In this document: positions 1 to 61,953 of the stretch, one piece after another
Layout: each line of letters opens with the position of its first letter
Numbering within the stretch: the first letter of the stretch is position 1
Source: a virus
Lineage: Duplodnaviria; Caudoviricetes
Reading direction: 5' to 3' (one strand)
IMG/VR virus record: IMGVR_UViG_3300021197_001137
Span: 1-61,953 of that record
Length of the DNA: 61,953 nt
The notes under the pieces: generated by a model
Seen by the model: the letters and a program-made list of their open reading frames with translations, nothing else
Told to the model about the DNA's origin: nothing
Databases searched by the model: none
Program-made: the position numbers and the translations under genes

Positions 1-3000
1 GAAATACCTGCTGATCAAGTACAAAGTGCTGTAAATAGAAATAAAATAGGAGCTGAGCTACCTTCAATGATTGGTACACAAATAAATAATAGGTTTTCCA
101 ACCTAGATCCATCCACTAGAGAGGAGTTTACATTTGATGTATTAGAAAAAATATTAAGGCCAAACAAACAAGGTGTTAACAAGGATTTACAATGGGACGG
201 CAGAGGAGACCTGTATGGCTTTTTAAATGGAAGAATAGGTCTTAGGATTAGAGATGCCGTTAGAGAAGATTACAATCGCCCAGAGGCTGAAAGAATGTAT
301 GTGGGGCGTATAGACGCTAAGCAAATAGAAGATTTAACAAAGGAGCCATCAACAGAGCCTACTACTGAGCCTACACCTAAAAAGAAATCTACAACCTCTG
401 AGGAGTCTGTAGAAAGAGGTCAAGCTACTTTTGACGAGCTAGACATTGTTGATGACGATTTAGTAAAAGATATTAAATCTGAGCTTGAAAAAGAAATTAG
501 GGTACGTGTTCAGAAAGGTACATTGTCAGAAACCGTTTCTGTTAAAAAAGGTAGAAATACATATATTGTATCGTGGCTAGAAGACTACATAAATAAGCAA
601 TTGTTCAAAAAGCTCCTTAAAAAAGTGGGTGCAATTAGTGGAACATATCCAGACACTGTAATACCCCCTGCTTATATTGACTTTTTGCAAGATCCCAAGA
701 CTTTTGATATTATAACAAAAGCTTTACCTATTAAAAGCATAAAGAAAAGCTATAGTAAGCTATTTGAAATAGAACGTATAGGTAGAGAAGTAACTGCAGA
801 AGGCAACCCTATATTTAGGATAAAGAAAATAGATAAAACTAAATTCTTTAAATACTTTGTAGATGGCAAAAAATCTACAATATTAGAAAGACAAAAGCAA
901 TTATTTAGAGAAATATTAACACCTGTAACAAAACAAATTGTTGCAGATATTGCGACTGTAGACAATCTAAGTTCATTAAAAGAAATACAGTCCTTGGCTC
1001 CATCTCAATCTGTAGATGTAGTAAATTCTATAGCTATTGAAGCTCAATTAAATGAGTTAGAATCTCAAATAGACAGATACAAAGGCGAAAAAACAGGATT
1101 TGATATTATTCAGTTTTCAAAAAGTTTAAGCAAGGAAGACAAAGCTGCTATTTCTAAAAAATTAGGTTATAAAAGCGATGGAGTTATAGCGATGGCTCAA
1201 TTAGCGGCGCAAATAATATCTCAAACAATAAGCCCTACAAGAAGAAAATACAATAAGTCTTTAAAGAGCATAGAAGAAAAACTTGGCCCTGAGCTTTGGG
1301 AAAAAGTTTGGAAAAACACTCTTAAAGATTATACTAATATACTTGATTCTTTTAAAGCAAAACAAGAGTATACTAATGGAGTATTAGCTGAACAAGTTGT
1401 TTGGGATGTTTTTTCTAAAACACCAGGTATTAAAGTTATTTCTAAAAGACCTGGAGATAAGTCAGGAGATACCTCAGCAGATATTATTATTAAGCATAAG
1501 CAAAAAGAATATATATTTGAAATAAAATACAATAAGACATCTAGGATAACTAGCACAAACATAAAAAATTACCACGATTCATCTAAAATGGAAACTACTC
1601 GTGAAATAGGTGAGGAAAGTAATAAAATAGTTATGGATGCTATAAAAAATAGCAAGCCATTACAAAGCTTTATTAGTAAGGTTGATAAATTTATGGCTAA
1701 AAATTATCCTGGTGAAAATTATATAACTGATTCAGGCTATATAGAGCTAACACCTAAGCAATATGAAGAATTAAATTTAGGAGACAGCCTATATAAAGAA
1801 TCTGTAACTTATATAAATGGCTTAAATGAAAAAATGGTAGAAGCCATATATAATGGAAAAGATACTCATTATATAGGATTTTTAGACATTGGTACATTTC
1901 ATGTAGGTGAAAATATAGCTGGGCTGCCGATACCTAAATTTGAGGGCGATCTATTTACTAGAGCATGGTTAAAAAAAGGTGCGCCTAAAGCCAATGGTAA
2001 AATGACATTCATACTTAAAATGTATGCCCAATTAACAACACCAGCTGCAGACGCTTTAGCCGAAGGGTCTACTATGTCTATAATAAGCTCTGATTCCATA
2101 AATAGCAATTTTAAAAGAATTCAGTTTTCTAAAAGTAAACCTGCGTGGGATCCATTTGATATGCGAGATGTGGTTACTATGGCATTGTTTGGTAAAACTA
2201 AAGCTTTTAAGAATAAACAAAGGTTTGAAAGAACTTATAAATATTTAACTCCTTCTCAACAAAAACAGGTACAGGAGGAAATGAAAAACCATAAATTATT
2301 GCAATTTAGCAAGACTATTAATAAAGCTAAAGCAATGATTAATAGACCCGACGCTCCTCAAAAAGGAATTAGCGTTTGGGATTTCGACGATACACTAGCA
2401 ACTACAAAAAGCAATGTATTATATACTTTACCAAATGGTACTAGAGGAAAAATAAATGCAACTGAGTTTGCATTGCAAGCCGATAGTCTTGAAAAGCAAG
2501 GCGCTGAATTTGATTTTAGTGAATTCAGCAAAGTAATGAAAGGCGCTAAAGGTCCTATGTTTGATAAAGCCATAGCTCGAAATAAAAAGTTTGGCAATGA
2601 CAATGTTTTTATTTTAACAGCTAGACCAGCGAATTCAAAATATGCTATACACGAGTTTTTAAAAGGTATTGGCTTAGATATCAAATTGGAAAACATAGTG
2701 GGCTTAGGCGACGGAACGGCCTTAGCTAAAGCACAATGGGTTGTTGGAAAAGTAGCCGAAGGCTATAACGATTTCTATTTTGCAGATGATGCTTACAAAA
2801 ATGTTAAAGCAGTGCAAGGGGTTCTTGAAGAGGCCGATGTTAAATCTAAAGTGCATCAAGCTAAAGTTCAATTCTCTAAAAACTTGAATAAAGATTTTAA
2901 TGACATTATACAAGACGTTACTGGCGTTTCTTCTAGTACTAAAGTATTTGAAGCTGCTAGTAAAGTTATAGGCAAAACAAAAGACAAATTTAAGTTTTTT

Positions 3001-4860
3001 GTACCATATTCTGCGGAGGATTTTGTTGGTTTGCTTTACCCTTTAATGGGCAAAGGTAAACAGGGAGACGCTCACGCTGCCTGGTTTAAGGAAGCTTTAT
3101 TAGATCCTTACGCTAAAGGGTATAGAGATTTTGAATCTTATAAGCAAAATGCTACAGCTATTGTTAAGCAACTTGTAAAAAGCTTTAAGGATGTTCCCTC
3201 GGGGTTAGAAAAAACTAATTCTACAGGTTTTACAAATGAAATGGCTTTAAGAGTTATATTGTGGGCAAAAAATGGTCACGAAATACCTGGTTTATCTAAG
3301 CAAGAGCGTAGTGATTTAATTAAGGTTGTTCAAGGTGATCAAGCTTTATTAAATTTTGCAAAACAAATACAATCTACTTTAGGTGGTTATCCTGAGCCTA
3401 CTAGCAATTGGTATGCTGGCACAATAACAACGGATGCTATTAACATGATAAACACATCTAAGAGAGCTGAGTTTTTGGAAGCTTGGCAGCAAAACGTAGA
3501 TGTGGTATTCTCTAAGGATAACATGAATAAACTTAGACTTCAATTTGGTGAAAACTACACAGAAGCTCTTGAAGACATGTTATACAGAATGAAGACCGGT
3601 CGTAACAGACCAATAGGAGCAAATAAGCTTACCAATAATTTTATGAATTGGGTAAATGACTCCGTTGGTACTATAATGTTCTTTAATACAAGATCTGCAT
3701 TGCTGCAAACATTATCTATTGTAAACTTTGTAAATTGGGGAGATAATAATCCTATTGCTGCAGCGGAAGCTTTTGCTAATCAAGATCAATTTTGGAAAGA
3801 CTTCAGTATGCTGTTTAATTCTGACTTTTTAAAACAAAGAAGATCCGGATTAAAGAATGATGTTAATGCTGACGACATAGCAAGAGCCGCAGAAACGGCA
3901 ACTAATAAATATAAAGCAGCACTTAGCGCAGTGTTAAAAGCTGGGTTTTTACCTACGCAAATAGCAGATAGTTTTGCTATAGCTATGGGTGGCGCATCTT
4001 TTGTTAGAAACAGAATAAATACTTATGTTTCACAAGGCATGTCAGAAAAGCAAGCTAAAGAAAAAGCTTTATTAGAGTTTCAAGAAATAGCAGAAGAAAC
4101 ACAACAGTCTTCAAGACCAGATAGAGTATCTCAACAGCAAGCAAGTCCATTAGGGCGTATTATATTAGCCTTTGCTAATACACCTATGCAATACATGAGG
4201 CTAACAAAGAAAGCTGTTTTAGATCTTAAAAACAGGCGTGGTGATGATAAAACTAATATAACTAAAATAATATATTATACAACGGTACAAAATATGATAT
4301 TCTCTTCATTGCAGTCAGCTATGTTTGCTGCTTTGTTTGAGGATGATGATGAGGAAATGATTGAGGATAAGCAACTAAGAGCGGCTAATTCTATGTTAGA
4401 TTCTCTGTTACGTGGTACCGGAGTATATGGGGCTATAGCTTCAACAATTAAAAATATATTATTTGAAGTAAATAAACAATCTAAAAAAGATCGACCAGAT
4501 TATACTCAAGCTGGCTTAAGGATGCTTAGTATATCCCCGCCTGTAGATTCTAAAATAAGAAAAGTACTTAGTACAGGTAGAGCTTTTAGTTATAAAACAA
4601 CTAGAGAAAAAATGGTTGGCTTTGGATTAGATAACCCCGCTTTTTATGCAATCGGCCAATCTGTATCTGCTTTTACTAACATTCCTTTGGATAGAGTTAT
4701 AAGAAAAATGGATAATGTTAGAATGGTATTTAGCGATGAAACTAAGTATTGGCAAAAGGTAGCATTGCTATTAGGATATAGCCAGTGGGATTTAGGATTG
4801 GTACAAAAGAAAGACACACCAAATAAGTTTGGAAAAACAAGCAAATGGAAAAAAAGATAA
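1..4860 (+). CDS. C-terminal part of giant putative virion/ejection polyprotein (continues from 59704-61953 across the window junction; ~2369 aa total) with sigma-region-2-like, PD-(D/E)XK nuclease and HAD phosphatase modules
   Basis: Frame 1 is open from base 1. Motifs: GVLAE..SADIII..FEIK (PD-(D/E)XK); VWDFDDT..ILTAR..FADDAYKN (HAD); four QFSK repeats in this part. Follows the tail/internal virion genes. Confidence 0.8.
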   Translation, partial: EIPADQVQSAVNRNKIGAELPSMIGTQINNRFSNLDPSTREEFTFDVLEKILRPNKQGVNKDLQWDGRGDLYGFLNGRIGLRIRDAVREDYNRPEAERMYVGRIDAKQIEDLTKEPSTEPTTEPTPKKKSTTSEESVERGQATFDELDIVDDDLVKDIKSELEKEIRVRVQKGTLSETVSVKKGRNTYIVSWLEDYINKQLFKKLLKKVGAISGTYPDTVIPPAYIDFLQDPKTFDIITKALPIKSIKKSYSKLFEIERIGREVTAEGNPIFRIKKIDKTKFFKYFVDGKKSTILERQKQLFREILTPVTKQIVADIATVDNLSSLKEIQSLAPSQSVDVVNSIAIEAQLNELESQIDRYKGEKTGFDIIQFSKSLSKEDKAAISKKLGYKSDGVIAMAQLAAQIISQTISPTRRKYNKSLKSIEEKLGPELWEKVWKNTLKDYTNILDSFKAKQEYTNGVLAEQVVWDVFSKTPGIKVISKRPGDKSGDTSADIIIKHKQKEYIFEIKYNKTSRITSTNIKNYHDSSKMETTREIGEESNKIVMDAIKNSKPLQSFISKVDKFMAKNYPGENYITDSGYIELTPKQYEELNLGDSLYKESVTYINGLNEKMVEAIYNGKDTHYIGFLDIGTFHVGENIAGLPIPKFEGDLFTRAWLKKGAPKANGKMTFILKMYAQLTTPAADALAEGSTMSIISSDSINSNFKRIQFSKSKPAWDPFDMRDVVTMALFGKTKAFKNKQRFERTYKYLTPSQQKQVQEEMKNHKLLQFSKTINKAKAMINRPDAPQKGISVWDFDDTLATTKSNVLYTLPNGTRGKINATEFALQADSLEKQGAEFDFSEFSKVMKGAKGPMFDKAIARNKKFGNDNVFILTARPANSKYAIHEFLKGIGLDIKLENIVGLGDGTALAKAQWVVGKVAEGYNDFYFADDAYKNVKAVQGVLEEADVKSKVHQAKVQFSKNLNKDFNDIIQDVTGVSSSTKVFEAASKVIGKTKDKFKFFVPYSAEDFVGLLYPLMGKGKQGDAHAAWFKEALLDPYAKGYRDFESYKQNATAIVKQLVKSFKDVPSGLEKTNSTGFTNEMALRVILWAKNGHEIPGLSKQERSDLIKVVQGDQALLNFAKQIQSTLGGYPEPTSNWYAGTITTDAINMINTSKRAEFLEAWQQNVDVVFSKDNMNKLRLQFGENYTEALEDMLYRMKTGRNRPIGANKLTNNFMNWVNDSVGTIMFFNTRSALLQTLSIVNFVNWGDNNPIAAAEAFANQDQFWKDFSMLFNSDFLKQRRSGLKNDVNADDIARAAETATNKYKAALSAVLKAGFLPTQIADSFAIAMGGASFVRNRINTYVSQGMSEKQAKEKALLEFQEIAEETQQSSRPDRVSQQQASPLGRIILAFANTPMQYMRLTKKAVLDLKNRRGDDKTNITKIIYYTTVQNMIFSSLQSAMFAALFEDDDEEMIEDKQLRAANSMLDSLLRGTGVYGAIASTIKNILFEVNKQSKKDRPDYTQAGLRMLSISPPVDSKIRKVLSTGRAFSYKTTREKMVGFGLDNPAFYAIGQSVSAFTNIPLDRVIRKMDNVRMVFSDETKYWQKVALLLGYSQWDLGLVQKKDTPNKFGKTSKWKKR

Positions 4861-5346: not shown

Positions 5347-5505
5347 ATGAACTTACAAGAAATAAAGTTATACGCTATAAACGGTAGTACACTAGGAGTT
5401 ACAACCTTTACACAAATAGAGGATTGGTTAAAAATAATATTATTAGTAGTAACTATAGGTTATACTATATCTAAATGGTCAAAAGTGCGTGAGGAAGATA
5501 AATAA
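5347..5505 (+). CDS. Putative holin (52 aa)
   Basis: Hand translation MNLQEIKLYAINGSTLGVTTFTQIEDWLKIILLVVTIGYTISKWSKVREEDK: hydrophobic helix, charged C-terminus, overlaps the endolysin start. Confidence 0.6.
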   Translation: MNLQEIKLYAINGSTLGVTTFTQIEDWLKIILLVVTIGYTISKWSKVREEDK

Positions 5506-5896
5506 AATAATAATACACTGTTCCGCTACAAAAGAAGGTGAAGATATATCCGCAGCTACTATAGATAGGTGGCATCGAGATAGAGGATGGAGCGGCATTG
5601 GTTATCATTATATTGTATCTTTAAACGGAAACATTGAGTACGGTAGGCCTATAGATAAGCAAGGGGCTCATGTAAAAAACCACAACAAGGGAAGTATTGG
5701 GATATGTTATATAGGAGGTCTAGATGAACATTTAGATCCAAAAGATACTAGAACGCCAGAGCAAAAAGAAAGCCTTCTATTACTTCTTAAAACATTAAAA
5801 AAAATGCATTCGAAAGCAACGATACATGGCCACAACGAATTCGCTAGAAAATCTTGTCCTTGTTTTGATGCTTATAATGAATATTGTTATATATAA
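5489..5896 (+). CDS. Endolysin, N-acetylmuramoyl-L-alanine amidase (T7 lysozyme-like, Amidase_2)
   Basis: IIIHCSAT, GIGYHY, SIGICYIGG, GHNE..KSCPCF motifs. Confidence 0.93.
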   Translation: MRKINKIIIHCSATKEGEDISAATIDRWHRDRGWSGIGYHYIVSLNGNIEYGRPIDKQGAHVKNHNKGSIGICYIGGLDEHLDPKDTRTPEQKESLLLLLKTLKKMHSKATIHGHNEFARKSCPCFDAYNEYCYI

Positions 5897-15463: not shown

Positions 15464-16216
15464 CTAAAGATAATCAATCACTTGAGTTGCGTCAACGTTA
15501 GCGATAAGACAGTCAATAGCTTCTTTTTTAATTTGAGAAACTATCACTGTTGCAGTAGGAACTTTTAAATTTATATAGTCTGCTATTTCTTTAGCCGAAT
15601 GTTTATCACAATCTAATCCGTAAAATAATCTAACAACATCATATTGCTTTTGGGTTAGGTGTTCTTTCATTAAGCTAAGTAAATATGCATTAAGTATATT
15701 TATATTATAGGGTTCTGAATTATCTGCAAGCTGGTAGGCCATGTGTTCATCATCATTGTCGGTAGGGACATCGTAGCTTGTGAATATACTATTAAAGAAT
15801 AGCGAAACCATTTTATCATCATCCGGGTTTTTTCTAATCTCTTGTAGCTTGTGTTCAGGTATTTTAATATCACCTCGATTAATATCTATTGCGCGTCTTA
15901 TTGATCCTTTAATTCTTTTACTAAAGAAACTTTTTAAAGTTTTTTCAATATCTTCAGAATCAATTAATAGATCCCAATCTAATTTGTCTACCGCCATTAT
16001 TAAACCTTTGTTTCCTTCTTGTATTAAATCGTTAATACTTAAAACGCCGGAAGCTTGTTGTGAGGTTGAAAATTTACGAGCTAAGTTTTCTACTAATGGC
16101 ATAAACTTAATTATCATTTCATCTCTAGTATAATAGTCGTAAAACTTTTCAGGAGGCATAGAAGCTTTTAAATCTTCTTTATATCTTATATAGTTTTGTA
16201 TGTTATATTTTTTCAT
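15464..16216 (-). CDS. Phage sigma70-family RNA polymerase sigma factor
   Basis: PLVENLARKF, DLIQEGNKGLIMAVDK, RIKGSIRRAI (region 2); LTQKQYDVVRLFYGL..SAKEIA (region 4). Confidence 0.9.
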   Translation of the reverse strand: MKKYNIQNYIRYKEDLKASMPPEKFYDYYTRDEMIIKFMPLVENLARKFSTSQQASGVLSINDLIQEGNKGLIMAVDKLDWDLLIDSEDIEKTLKSFFSKRIKGSIRRAIDINRGDIKIPEHKLQEIRKNPDDDKMVSLFFNSIFTSYDVPTDNDDEHMAYQLADNSEPYNINILNAYLLSLMKEHLTQKQYDVVRLFYGLDCDKHSAKEIADYINLKVPTATVIVSQIKKEAIDCLIANVDATQVIDYL

Positions 16217-16220
16217 CTTT

Positions 16221-16256
16221 TATATTATCGAAACAAGATCGTTTTTAGTTTGCAAA
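16221..16256 (-). promoter_or_regulatory. Early promoter repeat 1 (TTTGCAAAC-N6-CG-N10-GATAATATA)
   Basis: Matches consensus; 4 nt upstream of the sigma ATG. Confidence 0.75.
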
Positions 16257-18156: not shown

Positions 18157-18192
18157 TATATTATCTATTATTATTCGTATTATGTTTGCAAA
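18157..18192 (-). promoter_or_regulatory. Early promoter repeat 2
   Basis: Consensus match upstream of ATG 18142. Confidence 0.75.
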
Positions 18193-19896: not shown

Positions 19897-19932
19897 TATA
19901 TTATCGTTACTCTGTCGTATTTTGTTTGCAAA
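19897..19932 (-). promoter_or_regulatory. Early promoter repeat 3
   Basis: Consensus match. Confidence 0.75.
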
Positions 19933-20554: not shown

Positions 20555-20590
20555 TATATTATCGTATAGGTGACGTTTTACGTTTGCAAA
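20555..20590 (-). promoter_or_regulatory. Early promoter repeat 4 (drives the non-coding RNA array)
   Basis: Consensus match, followed by ~400 nt without a long ORF. Confidence 0.75.
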
Positions 20591-21934: not shown

Positions 21935-21970
21935 TATATTATCGTTAGGTGTTCGTTTTTAGTTTGCAAA
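21935..21970 (-). promoter_or_regulatory. Early promoter repeat 5
   Basis: Consensus match. Confidence 0.75.
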
Positions 21971-22832: not shown

Positions 22833-22868
22833 TATATTATCGATTCGGTGACGTAATTTGTTTGCAAA
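22833..22868 (-). promoter_or_regulatory. Early promoter repeat 6
   Basis: Consensus match. Confidence 0.75.
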
Positions 22869-23581: not shown

Positions 23582-23617
23582 TATATTATCGAATACTATT
23601 CGTACTTTGTTTGCAAA
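23582..23617 (-). promoter_or_regulatory. Early promoter repeat 7
   Basis: Consensus match. Confidence 0.75.
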
Positions 23618-23669: not shown

Positions 23670-23705
23670 TATATTATCGAAAACTATACGTACTACGTTT
23701 GCAAA
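23670..23705 (-). promoter_or_regulatory. Early promoter repeat 8
   Basis: Consensus match, 88 nt from repeat 7. Confidence 0.75.
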
Positions 23706-24114: not shown

Positions 24115-24150
24115 TATATTATCGTTGTTTACTCGTGTTGCGTTTGCAAA
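24115..24150 (-). promoter_or_regulatory. Early promoter repeat 9
   Basis: Consensus match. Confidence 0.75.
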
Positions 24151-24334: not shown

Positions 24335-24370
24335 TATATTATCGAGTGGATAGCGTAGTACGTTTGCAAA
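24335..24370 (-). promoter_or_regulatory. Early promoter repeat 10
   Basis: Consensus match. Confidence 0.75.
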
Positions 24371-31564: not shown

Positions 31565-33121
31565 ATGGAATTTAATAATCCTAGTGATATTGTAAAAACA
31601 CTAACCTTTGGTAAAAGTGCAAAGGAACAAATAATGCAAGGCGTTGAAAAATTATCAAACGCAGTAAAGAGCACCTTGGGTGCATCTGGAAAATGCGTGA
31701 TTTATGAAGACGCTCTTGGCCGACCGGTAATAACAAAAGACGGAGTAACCGTTGCAGACAGCGTAGTCTTATTACATCCGGTTGAAAACATAGGGGCAAC
31801 TCTTATAAAAGAAGCCGCTAATAACACAGTAAAAGAAGCAGGCGACGGTACGACTACGGCCACCGTTCTAGCCGACTCATTATTAAAAATTGCTAACGAA
31901 AAGTTACATGAAGAAAAAGTTAGAGACATTAAAGCAGGCATTCTTAGTTGTGCTGATAAAATTAAAATACATCTTGATAAGACCAGTACTCCTGTTAAGG
32001 GCGCTATGCTTAAGAACGTTGCTATTATTAGCTGCAACAACGACGAAGAACTTGGAACCAAAATTGGAGAAGCTTACGAAAAAGTTGGACCTAATGGAGT
32101 CATATTAATGGAGGAGTCTGAAACAAATGAAACATATGTTGATTTTGTTGAAGGCGCTCAATTTGATTCTAAAATTAAATCACCTCATTTAGCTACTGAC
32201 AAAGATAAAGGAACATCTACTTTAGATAATCCTTTAGTTCTTATAGTTTCATCGCCGATACCCAATATCAGGAGAATACAAAATGTTTTAGAACATGCCA
32301 TAAAAAATAAAAGAAGCTTATTAATTGTAGCCGAGGTAGAACAACAACCATTTGCAACATTAGTTGCTAATAAGGTAAAAGGCAATATAAGAGTTAATAT
32401 TGTAGACCCTCCTGGCTTTGGGCCAACAAGAGTTAAGTCAATAGAAGATTTAGCAATATTGACAGGAGCCACAGTTATAAACGAAGAGCTAGGCGATGAT
32501 TTAGATTTAATAGATGTATCAGTACTAGGGGAAGCGGTAAAGTCCGTTACAGACGACAAGAGCACTGTTCTACAGGTTCATGAACCAGACAACGAGGTTA
32601 AAGAAAGAATAAAATTAGTAGAAAGCAAAATAAAAGAAGAAACAAACCCGTTTTTTAGAAAAAAATTAGAGCAAAGGTTGTCAATGCTAACCGGCCGTGT
32701 AGGCATTATAAAAGTAGGAGGAAACTCTAAGGTTGAATTAAAAGAAAAAAAAGATAGGGTAGAAGACGCTATTTATGCAACAAAGGCAGCTTATAAAGAA
32801 GGCATTGTTGCTGGCGGCGGTGTAGCTTTACTAAATGCTTCTAAAAAAATTAAACCAGCTAATAAAGGAGAAGAGATTTTGCTTAAAGCGATACAAGCTC
32901 CTTATTACACAATATTAGATAACGCTGGTATAGTTGAAATAAAAAAGCCAACAACAAAAAATAGGGGTATTGATGTTAAAACCGGCAAGGAAGTTAATAT
33001 GCTTACCGCTGGGATTATAGACCCCGTGTTGGTAACAAAGTCAGCCCTTAAAAACGCAGTTAGTGTTGTAACCACCATAATATCTGCTGATTGCGTAATA
33101 AGTAATAAAAGACTAGCGTAA
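31565..33121 (+). CDS. groEL: Phage chaperonin GroEL
   Basis: TKDGVTVA, AGDGTTTATVLA, PGFG, KKDRVEDA, GGGVAL, GIIDP. Confidence 0.95.
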   Translation: MEFNNPSDIVKTLTFGKSAKEQIMQGVEKLSNAVKSTLGASGKCVIYEDALGRPVITKDGVTVADSVVLLHPVENIGATLIKEAANNTVKEAGDGTTTATVLADSLLKIANEKLHEEKVRDIKAGILSCADKIKIHLDKTSTPVKGAMLKNVAIISCNNDEELGTKIGEAYEKVGPNGVILMEESETNETYVDFVEGAQFDSKIKSPHLATDKDKGTSTLDNPLVLIVSSPIPNIRRIQNVLEHAIKNKRSLLIVAEVEQQPFATLVANKVKGNIRVNIVDPPGFGPTRVKSIEDLAILTGATVINEELGDDLDLIDVSVLGEAVKSVTDDKSTVLQVHEPDNEVKERIKLVESKIKEETNPFFRKKLEQRLSMLTGRVGIIKVGGNSKVELKEKKDRVEDAIYATKAAYKEGIVAGGGVALLNASKKIKPANKGEEILLKAIQAPYYTILDNAGIVEIKKPTTKNRGIDVKTGKEVNMLTAGIIDPVLVTKSALKNAVSVVTTIISADCVISNKRLA

Positions 33122-59703: not shown

Positions 59704-61953
59704 ATGGAAAAATTATTTGAAGCACTGCGAGACAGCGGTCAATATACTAAATCTTTCTCTGACTTTCAATCACAATTTGGTAGTCAAGAGGGCCAAGAAA
59801 AACTATACGGAGCTCTAAAAGAATCAGGAAGTTACACTAAAACATTTGGTGATTTTACTTCTCAATTTTTTAATACAGCAGAGCCAGTAAAGACAAACGA
59901 CTCTGCAAGTGCGGATCCAGCTGTGGAGTCAAACCAAAACGCTACGGGATCCAAATCGGAAGATGGTTCATTGGGGTCACAGCCTGAATTAACTACATGG
60001 CAAAGTATAAAAAATAGCCTTAGTAATGTTGCTGAAAATTTTGACGACGTACTTGAATTTTGGGGAGACGACGGGGGAAAAGATGCTGCAAAAGATATTG
60101 CAACAAATGCTATTTATTCCTCTATATTTGGACAAAAAAATTTAGAAAATAAAGATGCTTTTATCGGCGGGGATATTGGTGCTGAAAATACTTTAAATGC
60201 TTTAAAAAGGTACGAGGAAGACCAAAAAGAAATGAAGCAAACTAAAGGCATAATCGAATCTTATAATAAAGGTGATTATGGTGGCATGGTTGCTGGTGCT
60301 GTAAACGCTGTTACCAACGGTTTCGGGAGCATGGTTTACGGGATAGGAACAGGATTTATGGGCTATATGGCTGATTTTACAGCAAGAAATTATGCCGAAT
60401 ACAACAAACAAAAAGCTGAAAATTTAGGTATTTCATTAGAGGAGCTTGTTAAAAGTGGCGAGGCTGAAACTGTTGTTCCAGTTGCTTTAGGCACTGCTAA
60501 TATGGCAGCAGAAGTTATAGGTGATGCAATGGTGGCCGCGGCAGTAGTTGGGACTAGGGGTAAAATTAAAGGTCCGGCGGCATTTGCAGTTAGAAAACTT
60601 CCTAAGCAATTGCTTAACAAAATAATGTACAATAAAAAAGCGAAAGCAGCTTTAACTATATTTGGAACGGGGGTTGGCGAATTTGCAACAGAGATAACAC
60701 AACACGGTACTGACGCTGTAAATGACGAATTAGGTAGAGTTGCAGGTACTAAAGAGAATTCTAAAGCAATTGAAGCGTTCTACAATGCTATTACTAGCGA
60801 AGAAGGTTTAGAAGCGGGATTACAAGGATTAGTAGGAGCTGGCGGTATGGTCGGTGGATCATATAGTATTAAAGCTATGAACTCAGTTAGGCAAACCGTT
60901 GATGGCGATATGCTAGATAAAAACCTAGAGTCTTTATCGGCAAAGCAACTAGAGTTCGCTAAAGCTACAGACGAAACCGTTAAAGAAGGCATACAAGCTG
61001 AAATAGATGCTATAGAAGAAAATATAGCTAACCAAGTTATTAGAGGTAATAAAATATACAACAGTCTAACAAATGGGCAAATATCAGAGCTAGAAAGTTA
61101 TAGCGATCTTGCTGATGCAGCAGCTTATAAGATTACTGAATTAAATAAAAAACGTAGATTAAACCAAATATCTGAATCAGAATATAATGTAGCCAAACAA
61201 GGGTTTGAGTCTCAATATAACAGCGCAAAGCAAAGCATATCTGATATGAAGCTTAACGAAAATATTGATTTCTTAAAAACAACTGTTAAAAAAGAAGGCT
61301 TCGCTAAGGACATAGAAGCAACTGTGCTTAATTCTACTCTAGAAACTAAAGCAGCAATGGAAAACCTGAGTGAGGTTGACAAAGCTAATAAGCAGGAGTA
61401 TTTTGACAGCGCTGGTAATGTAGCAGGATTTACTGTGGGTGGCAAAATTTTTGTTAACAAAGAGGCCGCTAGAAATACGGGACAAATTAATGTAGCTAAG
61501 CATGAATTTTTACATAAAATAATAAATGCTAAAGTAGGCGGAGTTAAAGCGCAGGAAGCTATGGTTAAGGGTCTGCGTAGAGCATTGAGTTCTAAACAAA
61601 GAAAAATAGTAGATCAAGCTTTATTGAATAGAGATTACAAGACAAAACAAGAGTTTAACACAGAGTATGTGCAGGTTCTTTCAGATTTAATAGCAACTGA
61701 AAAAATATCTTTTGAAAAATCCGCGCTAGGAAAGATGGGGGATGCAATAAAAAGGTTTTTTGTTGGTAATGGTTTTGAAAAAATAAGTTTTGAAGACAGT
61801 AAAGGTGTATTAAACTTTATTAAAGATTATAGCAAAAATACAAAAGAATTAAGCACTGAAGCCAAGCAAGCGATAGGAGACACTAATCTTGCAGAAGAAG
61901 GTAACTTGCAGTTTTCTAAAACTCAATTAGAAAATACTAAAAAGAAATTAAGC
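59704..61953 (+). CDS. N-terminal part of giant putative virion polyprotein with zincin metallopeptidase (continues at position 1)
   Basis: Absent from the ORF track because it has no stop in the window. ATG at 59704, 750 codons; GKIFVN..VAKHEFLHK (HExxH at 61501-61515); LQFSK at 61906-61920. Confidence 0.8.
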   Translation, partial: MEKLFEALRDSGQYTKSFSDFQSQFGSQEGQEKLYGALKESGSYTKTFGDFTSQFFNTAEPVKTNDSASADPAVESNQNATGSKSEDGSLGSQPELTTWQSIKNSLSNVAENFDDVLEFWGDDGGKDAAKDIATNAIYSSIFGQKNLENKDAFIGGDIGAENTLNALKRYEEDQKEMKQTKGIIESYNKGDYGGMVAGAVNAVTNGFGSMVYGIGTGFMGYMADFTARNYAEYNKQKAENLGISLEELVKSGEAETVVPVALGTANMAAEVIGDAMVAAAVVGTRGKIKGPAAFAVRKLPKQLLNKIMYNKKAKAALTIFGTGVGEFATEITQHGTDAVNDELGRVAGTKENSKAIEAFYNAITSEEGLEAGLQGLVGAGGMVGGSYSIKAMNSVRQTVDGDMLDKNLESLSAKQLEFAKATDETVKEGIQAEIDAIEENIANQVIRGNKIYNSLTNGQISELESYSDLADAAAYKITELNKKRRLNQISESEYNVAKQGFESQYNSAKQSISDMKLNENIDFLKTTVKKEGFAKDIEATVLNSTLETKAAMENLSEVDKANKQEYFDSAGNVAGFTVGGKIFVNKEAARNTGQINVAKHEFLHKIINAKVGGVKAQEAMVKGLRRALSSKQRKIVDQALLNRDYKTKQEFNTEYVQVLSDLIATEKISFEKSALGKMGDAIKRFFVGNGFEKISFEDSKGVLNFIKDYSKNTKELSTEAKQAIGDTNLAEEGNLQFSKTQLENTKKKLS

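Follow-up and report, generated by a model that had tools for sequence, protein, structure and literature searches.

Some phages bring transcription functions into the cell along with their DNA; crAss-like phages inject an RNA polymerase, as N4 does. Phage T4 makes gp55, a free late protein with little beyond a sigma-2 domain, which works with gp33 and the sliding clamp. In the sections of Iyer et al (2017; PMC5512222) drawn on here, N4 is described as delivering a complete single-subunit polymerase and T4 Alt as modifying the host polymerase, and the giant phage proteins called polyvalent proteins are predicted to take over the host after co-injection with the DNA; the word "sigma" occurs 0 times in the main text of that paper. 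The literature searched yielded no account of a virion or polyvalent protein with a sigma-like domain. Here we analyse IMG/VR virus record IMGVR_UViG_3300021197_001137, the whole of which (61,953 bp) is the window and which belongs to a marine flavobacterial phage group. At nt 28–342, inside an open reading frame (ORF) of 2369 amino acids (aa) encoded next to virion genes, it has what is, from its sequence relatives and a predicted fold, very likely a diverged sigma-70 region-2 (sigma-2) domain and a true sigma-2 homologue.

The domain resembles PF04542, especially sigma-2 of the group-4 or extracytoplasmic function (ECF) type: the Sigma70_r2, Sigma70_ECF and TIGR02937 models recognise members of its family, and template modelling (TM) scores to sigma-E region 2 are 0.5–0.63. 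As in sigma-70 region 2, an acidic/hydrophobic 2.1/2.2-like helix is followed by an aromatic/basic 2.3/2.4-like helix, in the usual order. Unlike free sigmas, which have 170–250 aa, the domain is embedded at about aa 760–865 of the 2369 aa and comes without region 4. It also departs from the usual sigma-2 in a long loop with a W-D-G-R-G motif, in conservation that is strongest in the 2.3/2.4-like helix, and in a window copy that falls below all profiles. With T4 gp55 it shares a sigma-2-like domain in a phage protein and the lack of region 4, and the fold lists include both chain F of 7d7c and a homologue of gp55, although these matches are weak (query-normalised TM 0.31 and 0.39); unlike gp55, it is a module of a giant protein encoded in the virion operon. 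That giant protein is like polyvalent proteins, as far as the sections of PMC5512222 drawn on here describe them, in its size, in its shuffled unrelated modules beside virion genes and in an HExxH motif that possibly releases modules. If the inference developed below holds, the N4 virion RNA polymerase and T4 Alt follow the same logic, that of a late-made, packaged protein acting on transcription at the start of infection, whereas the cargo here would be a polymerase-binding sigma fragment.

Sequence and predicted fold of the sigma-2-like domain

The initial annotation had noticed by eye that RNKIGAELPSMIGTQINNRF..STREEFTFDVLEKIL..WDGRGDLYGFLNGRIGLRIRDAVR resembles region 2 of sigma-70/ECF factors. 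These residues are present as quoted at aa 13–90 of a 5′-open frame (nt 37–270, frame 1) and begin 15 residues past the first QFSK, a short motif that marks module borders in the giant protein. The resemblance held at the level of the family, although not for the window's own segment, which matched no sigma profile. The module is composed as follows:

61909..61920, plus strand: QFSK junction 1, which opens the module of sigma-2-like and X domains
28..342, plus strand: sigma-70 region-2-like domain, aa 10–114 of the 5′-open frame
343..411, plus strand: Pro/Thr/Glu-rich linker, aa 115–137, with a predicted local distance difference test score (pLDDT) of ~32 in the whole-module model
412..1122, plus strand: X domain, aa 138–374, ending with QFSK junction 2 (1111–1122)

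A phmmer search with aa 1–115 of the window against 1.84 billion representative proteins returned 35 matches at an expect value (E) of ≤1e-3, with 25–91% identity, and 22 of the 35 sit in proteins of 1,900–3,500 aa. One of these relatives, P0275, is tied to the window at E 3.7e-4 (against 1.84e9 proteins) and matches Sigma70_r2 with 27.4 bits (Pfam cut-off 24; E 3e-6) within the region common to the window. It also matches five NCBIfam sigma models, including TIGR02937 sigma70-ECF at E 2.2e-4. When ten phmmer relatives were scanned whole in Pfam, P0275 was above the cut-off and P0261 matched Sigma70_ECF and Sigma70_r2 weakly. In an alignment of 22 family sub-modules (A3), Sigma70_r2 was matched at E ≤ 1 by 7/22 members (best 8.5e-7) and Sigma70_ECF by 3/22, and every non-sigma family was matched by at most two. 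The window segment is thus linked to PF04542 transitively, through demonstrable homologues that match the Sigma70_r2 profile.

Members of the family have in common an E-L-P-G-M-x-x-x-Q motif and an acidic helix, D-F-x-x-D-V-x-x-R-I-Y. The best-conserved stretch reads W-D-G-R-G-x-L-Y-G-F-L-N-G-R-I-x-x-R-I-x-D, in which G67, G69, L71, Y72, G73, N76, G77, R78, I79, R82 and D85 show little or no variation. The register proposed in the initial annotation was borne out by the family profile matches, the structural model and the fold matches: EEFTFDVLEKIL corresponds to a region 2.1/2.2-type helix and LYGFLNGRIGLRIRDAVR to a region 2.3/2.4-type helix.

An AlphaFold2 model of the whole 374-aa module, built on a 14-row alignment, had a pLDDT of 54 and gave nothing usable in Foldseek, and was set aside in favour of the sub-module with the deeper alignment. 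The confident prediction on A3 (pLDDT 89.0, predicted TM score 0.81) is a three-helix domain, with predicted helices at residues 10–31, 37–52, 71–91 and 106–114. The top three probabilities in a Foldseek search of the Protein Data Bank (PDB) were all sigma region-2 entries: 5or5 (0.72), 8i23_F SigI1 (0.63) and 2mao (0.60). The match to 5or5 had TM 0.54/0.63 and a root-mean-square deviation of 2.9 Å over 95 columns, and sigma region-2 matches spanned TM 0.50–0.63. The list also has SigE (2z2s_E) and, from the gp55 complex 7d7c, chain F. Named sigma factors account for 11 of the 50 viral models listed from BFVD. In ESM Atlas, 3 of 30 matches are clusters with PF04542 (score 0.94), which we take as a lead only.

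The module (nt 61921–1122, running over the ends of the record) has 179 relatives at E ≤ 0.001. Its N-terminal ~110 aa occur in three forms, A in the window and B and C in relatives, which can be aligned by MAFFT but are only 14–21% identical. All five scanned members of variant B match nothing but sigma models in NCBIfam (SigE, SigK and SigI; best E 3.4e-4), and three of the five match Pfam Sigma70_r2 (E 0.014–0.072). Two sigma-like lineages, A and B, thus stand at one architectural position, and we argue from these sequences that they point to a generic sigma-2 function, core binding, as the property under selection.

What follows the sigma-2-like part changes far less. The X domain, the C-terminal ~240 aa of the module, is highly conserved in all three variants, across which the whole module is 57–79% identical; it has a basic core (isoelectric point 9.85 for aa 170–320), and the sigma-2-like part is always fused to it. 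No family, DNA-binding families included, was matched by the X domain, and ESM Atlas gave nothing usable for it. A genome scan with Sigma70_r4 at E ≤ 10 found only the phage's free-standing sigma gene, described below; neither region 4 nor another −35-reading or flap-binding domain was detected in the giant protein. The X domain showed no resemblance to the C-terminal half of the phage's own sigma (hhalign E 0.25). Its comparison with the X domain of distant giant proteins is suggestive only (hhalign E 0.0023, probability 12.5%, 145 columns). Because in those proteins too the sigma-2-like part has a weakly similar domain behind it, the two-domain arrangement may be old.

Modular build and probable delivery of the giant protein

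The giant protein is read from a single 2369-aa ORF that crosses the window ends (59704–61953 joined to 1–4860). Its frame is continuous in a relative, P0003 (2355 aa, 94% identical), which reads ...LQFSKTQLENTKKKLS and then EIPADQV... straight over the junction. The IMG/VR label "linear" masks a complete genome, since the record is circularly permuted in the middle of its largest gene; with the permutation point inside it, the giant ORF is prone to being split or truncated by gene callers. In addition to the module described above, it contains the following:

59704..61953, plus strand: 5′ part of the giant ORF, aa 1–750 (750 codons), with a leader, Gly/Ala-rich stretches, a coiled coil and HEFLH
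59704–59950, plus strand: N-terminal leader with two tandem YTK[ST]F.DF.SQF repeats
61501..61515, plus strand: HEFLH, an HExxH (zincin-type) motif seen by eye near the end of the first module
1..4860, plus strand: 3′ part of the giant ORF, aa 751–2369
1123..2133, plus strand: module 2, weakly similar to PD-(D/E)XK nucleases (E 0.017), ending with QFSK junction 3 (2122–2133)
2134..2313, plus strand: short module of 60 aa, ending with QFSK junction 4 (2302–2313)
2314..2880, plus strand: module 4, similar to HAD and polynucleotide kinase-phosphatase proteins, with a DxDxT motif, ending with QFSK junction 5 (2869–2880)
2881..4860, plus strand: conserved C-terminal domain of ~660 aa, with no family match

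The build of the protein is modular: relatives have exchanged entire modules with one another at the QFSK junctions. QFSK occurs five times, against 0.04 copies expected from composition, is usually preceded by two hydrophobic residues and marks each module border. QFS junctions are kept in 119 of 120 homologues while the modules between them vary, and in distant giant proteins the equivalent module ends in G-N-V-K-F-S. Module 2 is exchanged for an unrelated module in P0003 (aa 1125–1447), with nearly identical flanks; the breakpoint of this exchange falls within the last part of the X domain and not exactly at QFSK. QFSK may be a site of protease cleavage or a joint for recombination. We know of no described counterpart of this junction, nor of QFSK in polyvalent proteins.

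Features of polyvalent proteins seen here are the length of 2369 aa, the six modules, the exchange of module 2 in P0003, the three sigma-2-like variants and the neighbourhood of virion and packaging genes. The hallmark domains of such proteins (MuF, zincin peptidase and polyvalent-associated domains) had no Pfam match in the whole protein or in eight sub-segments, and PDB searches matched no solved structure to the giant protein by sequence. The HEFLH region likewise had no significant Pfam match; its module is a candidate processing peptidase. Window nt 37–225 resembles aa 680–746 of P0070, P0077 and P0078 (38% identity over 70 aa, BLAST E ~5e-4 in a database of 121 proteins), which is the tail of the HExxH module preceding in variant B proteins and contains F-D-x-G-K-D-V-Y-N-F-L; this resemblance could reflect an internal duplication or chance. 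The profile matches of module 4 are weak (phrog_415 E 4.6e-4, DUF2608 E 0.0016, HAD E 0.052). The C-terminal domain is a candidate encapsidation or ejection domain, and the N-terminal leader may be a packaging or targeting signal. An alternative view of the N-terminal region as transmembrane was rejected, as its mean Kyte-Doolittle value never exceeds 1.4 in any 19-residue window.

The phage is a flavobacterial podophage. Its terminase shares 62% identity with its counterpart in the uncultured podophage MW202828.1, 45% with that of Flavobacterium Elemovirus and 38% with those of Cellulophaga phages phi18:3 and phi38:1, and on account of these identities its host is very probably a member of Flavobacteriia. 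Megablast gave no match, and no named phage was matched in tblastn searches with the module and with the C-terminal domain. The plus-strand late block holds the terminase, the portal, five proteins with PHROG "virion structural protein" matches, the giant gene and an amidase gene, and a block on the minus strand holds a ribonucleotide reductase, a primase/helicase, the sigma gene and numerous small ORFs. The late block ends with the amidase/endolysin gene (5489–5896; phrog_822, E 4.5e-59), directly after the giant gene; the same gene has a weaker match to a PHROG described as "endolysin; inhibits RNA polymerase" (E 6.2e-7). A GroEL-type chaperonin gene lies at 31565–33121 (phrog_5725, E 8e-139) and is also found in Elemovirus and MW202828.1, both of which annotate GroES.

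The giant gene starts 4 nt after the preceding late gene, on the same strand as terminase and portal and downstream of them, with virion structural genes on one side and the amidase gene on the other. Syntenic giant genes encode 3694 aa in Elemovirus (NC_055854.1) and 1691 aa in phi38:1, both annotated "structural protein", and 3859 aa in MW202828.1. From this gene position we think it probable that the protein is delivered with the virion: it would be expressed with virion genes, early action would need packaging, and its counterparts in relatives are annotated as structural. In a search with our own hidden Markov model (HMM), the leader of ~80 aa has a match in the MW202828.1 giant protein (E 2.6e-12) and is the sole part the two share; no sequence similarity was detected to the giant proteins of Elemovirus and phi38:1.

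The same late operon would also fit a module that acts in the producing cell, where it would be made late, freed from a precursor at QFSK and used as a late transcription factor; QFSK and the HExxH motif could together give such processing. We regard this as very unlikely. Among the large genes of the structural block this one comes last, as the giant "structural protein" genes do in relatives, a free-standing sigma is already present for later gene classes, and regulators of tailed phages seldom derive from polyprotein precursors.

A proposed contact with the host polymerase

Our tentative explanation, which we put slightly below an even chance, is that the module is sigma-derived and docks on the host RNA polymerase core from within a multi-module ejected protein. 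The giant protein would be packaged and then ejected with the DNA, as other giant proteins at this position and polyvalent proteins would be. The sigma-2-like domain would then dock on the clamp helices of the host core polymerase, the generic role of sigma-2, either while still part of the giant protein or once the HExxH module has cut it free at the QFSK junctions. By competing with the host sigma, or by holding the polymerase in place, it may capture or divert the host enzyme at the entering genome. Selection of the −10 element at the ten repeated promoters described below would not be its task. On the core-binding step taken by itself we are close to undecided, leaning marginally towards doubt.

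A number of results weigh against this explanation, beginning with the identity of the domain. The window segment had no sigma match in Pfam (at E ≤ 10 or E ≤ 1) or in NCBIfam and stays below the gathering score of Sigma70_r2 (PF04542), and a six-frame scan of the genome with Sigma70_r2 at E ≤ 10 found only the free-standing gene (15971–16108). Sequence and profile searches of the PDB gave 0 matches for the segment; the A3 profile found no PDB chain at E ≤ 10, and P0275 alone found none. PDB searches with A1, A2, A3, P0001, P0002 and P0275 returned nothing relevant, A2 giving only EF-hand-type chance matches at E > 0.1. Foldseek gave 0 matches at E ≤ 0.001 in the PDB or BFVD, all being at E > 0.1, and numerous cGAS chains stand among the sigma rows of the PDB list. 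With hhalign profiles that are shallow (effective number of sequences ~1.5–3.5) and carry no secondary structure, the family aligned to the phage's own sigma in the sigma-2 register at E 0.033 and probability 1.5%, and to variants B and C at E 0.055 and 0.1, none of them significant; comparisons among variants A, B and C and the own sigma ranged overall over E 0.03–0.47 with probabilities ≤1.5%. Variant C gave a sigma match in 0/3 members in Pfam and NCBIfam. A scan of bacterial genomes with A3 yielded 22 pattern matches, of which 0 were confirmed.

Taken at face value, the missing direct match of the window, the Foldseek E values above 0.1, the non-significant hhalign scores and the empty PDB profile search are what one would see if an unrelated three-helix bundle resembled sigma-2 by chance and composition drove the profile matches. 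We nevertheless think such a coincidence quite unlikely. One member, P0275, exceeds the curated Pfam cut-off, 7 of the 22 members converge on one family with no competitor, and a second library returns sigma-only lists for variant B (5/5) and for P0275. Every match is also in the same register.

Other points bear on the contact and on delivery. What is known here of the domain with respect to the polymerase comes from its sequence and predicted fold. A complex prediction of the sub-module with residues 200–370 of RPOC_FLAJ1 gave no answer (score 0.09, mark 0.32), and we take nothing from it either way. When the giant proteins of Elemovirus, phi38:1 and MW202828.1 were searched with our own HMMs, neither the sigma-2-like nor the X nor the C-terminal domain was detected in any of them, and the A3 profile had no match in Elemovirus NC_055854.1. 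Because no giant protein of a cultured relative has a sigma-2-like, X or C-terminal domain, it is synteny that the case for packaging draws on.

Conservation, finally, peaks in the region 2.3/2.4-like helix and not in the 2.2-like helix, and in real sigmas the 2.2 helix is the one that binds core. This distribution, with the most constant residues in an Arg/Gly-rich helix and fewer in the 2.2-like one, is also what would be seen if a sigma-2 descendant had left RNA polymerase and taken on another task in the ejection or cargo protein, as a helical element with a structural role or one that binds nucleic acids and keeps hold of, for instance, DNA that is single-stranded or entering. Neighbouring modules that look nucleic-acid-directed (PD-(D/E)XK-like and HAD/polynucleotide kinase-phosphatase-like) and the constant fusion with the X domain are in keeping with such a role. 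Lineages A and B at one position are easier to explain by selection for core binding, and we find co-option somewhat unlikely.

Early promoters and the free-standing sigma

The initial annotation had gone further and proposed that an injected sigma-like fragment reprograms the host polymerase for a set of early promoters, one of which drives a free-standing sigma gene. The components of this proposal are present in the window:

15464..16216, minus strand: free-standing sigma-70-family gene, 250 aa, with regions 2 and 4
16221..16256, minus strand: core of the repeat directly upstream of the sigma gene, TTTGCAAAC-N5-ACG-N9-CGATAATATA
18157–18192, 19897–19932, 20555–20590, 21935–21970, 22833–22868, 23582–23617, 23670–23705, 24115–24150 and 24335–24370, minus strand: cores of nine further repeats

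The gene at 15464–16216 is a real sigma factor, with a match to phrog_351 at E 1.9e-19 and to 28 PDB sigma chains (best E 1.2e-5), and it has at least 8000 relatives at E ≤ 0.001. The ten promoter-like repeats are found between 16221 and 24370, all facing small ORFs of the minus strand, and the one announced for the sigma gene does lie directly upstream of it, the gene starting at 16216. Leaderless mRNAs starting at the repeats were considered and rejected, as the ATG belongs to the conserved motif and the real starts lie ~25–35 nt downstream in most copies. The primary-sigma consensus of Bacteroidota is TTTG at −33 and TAnnTTTG at −7, which we judge the repeat motif not to fit; its layout of AAC, 17 nt and CG is presumably typical of ECF-type promoters.

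The phage was also said to have no recognisable RNA polymerase. This stands for the multi-subunit type, as a domain scan whose control was positive in 14/14 genomes detected no beta-prime domain; for the single-subunit type the claim goes beyond the scan, whose model came without a working control.

The three-block motif is kept in number and sequence in four related genomes. Ten copies are present in the window, the only variant A genome among the five compared, ten each in G003 and G006 (variant B), and nine and seven in G002 and G007 (variant C); in the window and in G003, one copy immediately precedes the sigma gene. Six further records have at most one motif match each, and all of them are fragments (42–89% complete) in which the early region is truncated or absent. 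The motif is thus unchanged where variant A is replaced by B or C, which are as diverged from it as stated above, and this weakens the sigma-2-like part as a promoter reader; the part of the initial annotation that had this domain set the specificity of the ten early promoters found no support in the comparison. Four genomes were found to have the free-standing sigma, at 74–82% identity, and like it the X domain is conserved alongside the motif. Reading of the promoter by the X domain would therefore still be compatible with the co-variation result.

These data allow a version of the cascade in which the ejected module is a minimal sigma, with the X domain in place of region 4, and directs the host core to the ten early promoters and so starts two successive steps of sigma control. 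Several observations speak for it: the sigma-2-like identity of the domain, the ten conserved repeats that face early small ORFs, with the last directly upstream of the sigma gene, the presumably ECF-type motif layout together with family members that match ECF sigma models, and the failure of the beta-prime scan to find a phage RNA polymerase. The free-standing sigma cannot be the first to fire the repeats, because its own gene sits behind one of them. The X domain is basic, is kept across A, B and C as the promoter motif is, and could be the DNA-reading part, and T4 gp55 illustrates that a sigma-2-only protein can act as a sigma. Set against this are the motif that stays the same in G003 and G006 (B) and in G002 and G007 (C), the lack of any region 4 or helix-turn-helix signal in the module, an X domain without a match to a DNA-binding family, and a simpler account in which a host sigma, primary or ECF, reads the repeats. 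We consider this cascade unlikely, and promoter-specific initiation by the module, taken as a separate claim, is to our minds improbable to a similar degree. The boldest form, in which the injected sigma-2-like domain would seize the host core polymerase at the entry site and the X domain would place it on the ten ECF-like early promoters, one of them switching on the phage's complete sigma, is a speculation to which we give equally little credence.

Many uncultured marine phages pose the question of how the first genes are transcribed in a phage that lacks a polymerase and has promoters unlike those of the host, and the phage group studied here is very common in public data. A sigma-2 domain in a probably ejected protein gives this question a concrete and testable handle, through core binding, competition with the host sigma and use of the repeat promoters. 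The QFSK motif offers, for its part, a candidate processing or recombination signal that defines the borders of modules. Among the cargo known from giant multi-domain phage proteins, the domain would be an addition that derives from a transcription factor. If the reading in which the module captures the polymerase and initiates transcription were true, it would be a third mode of virion-borne transcription takeover, beside the polymerase of N4 and crAss-like phages and the enzyme T4 Alt.

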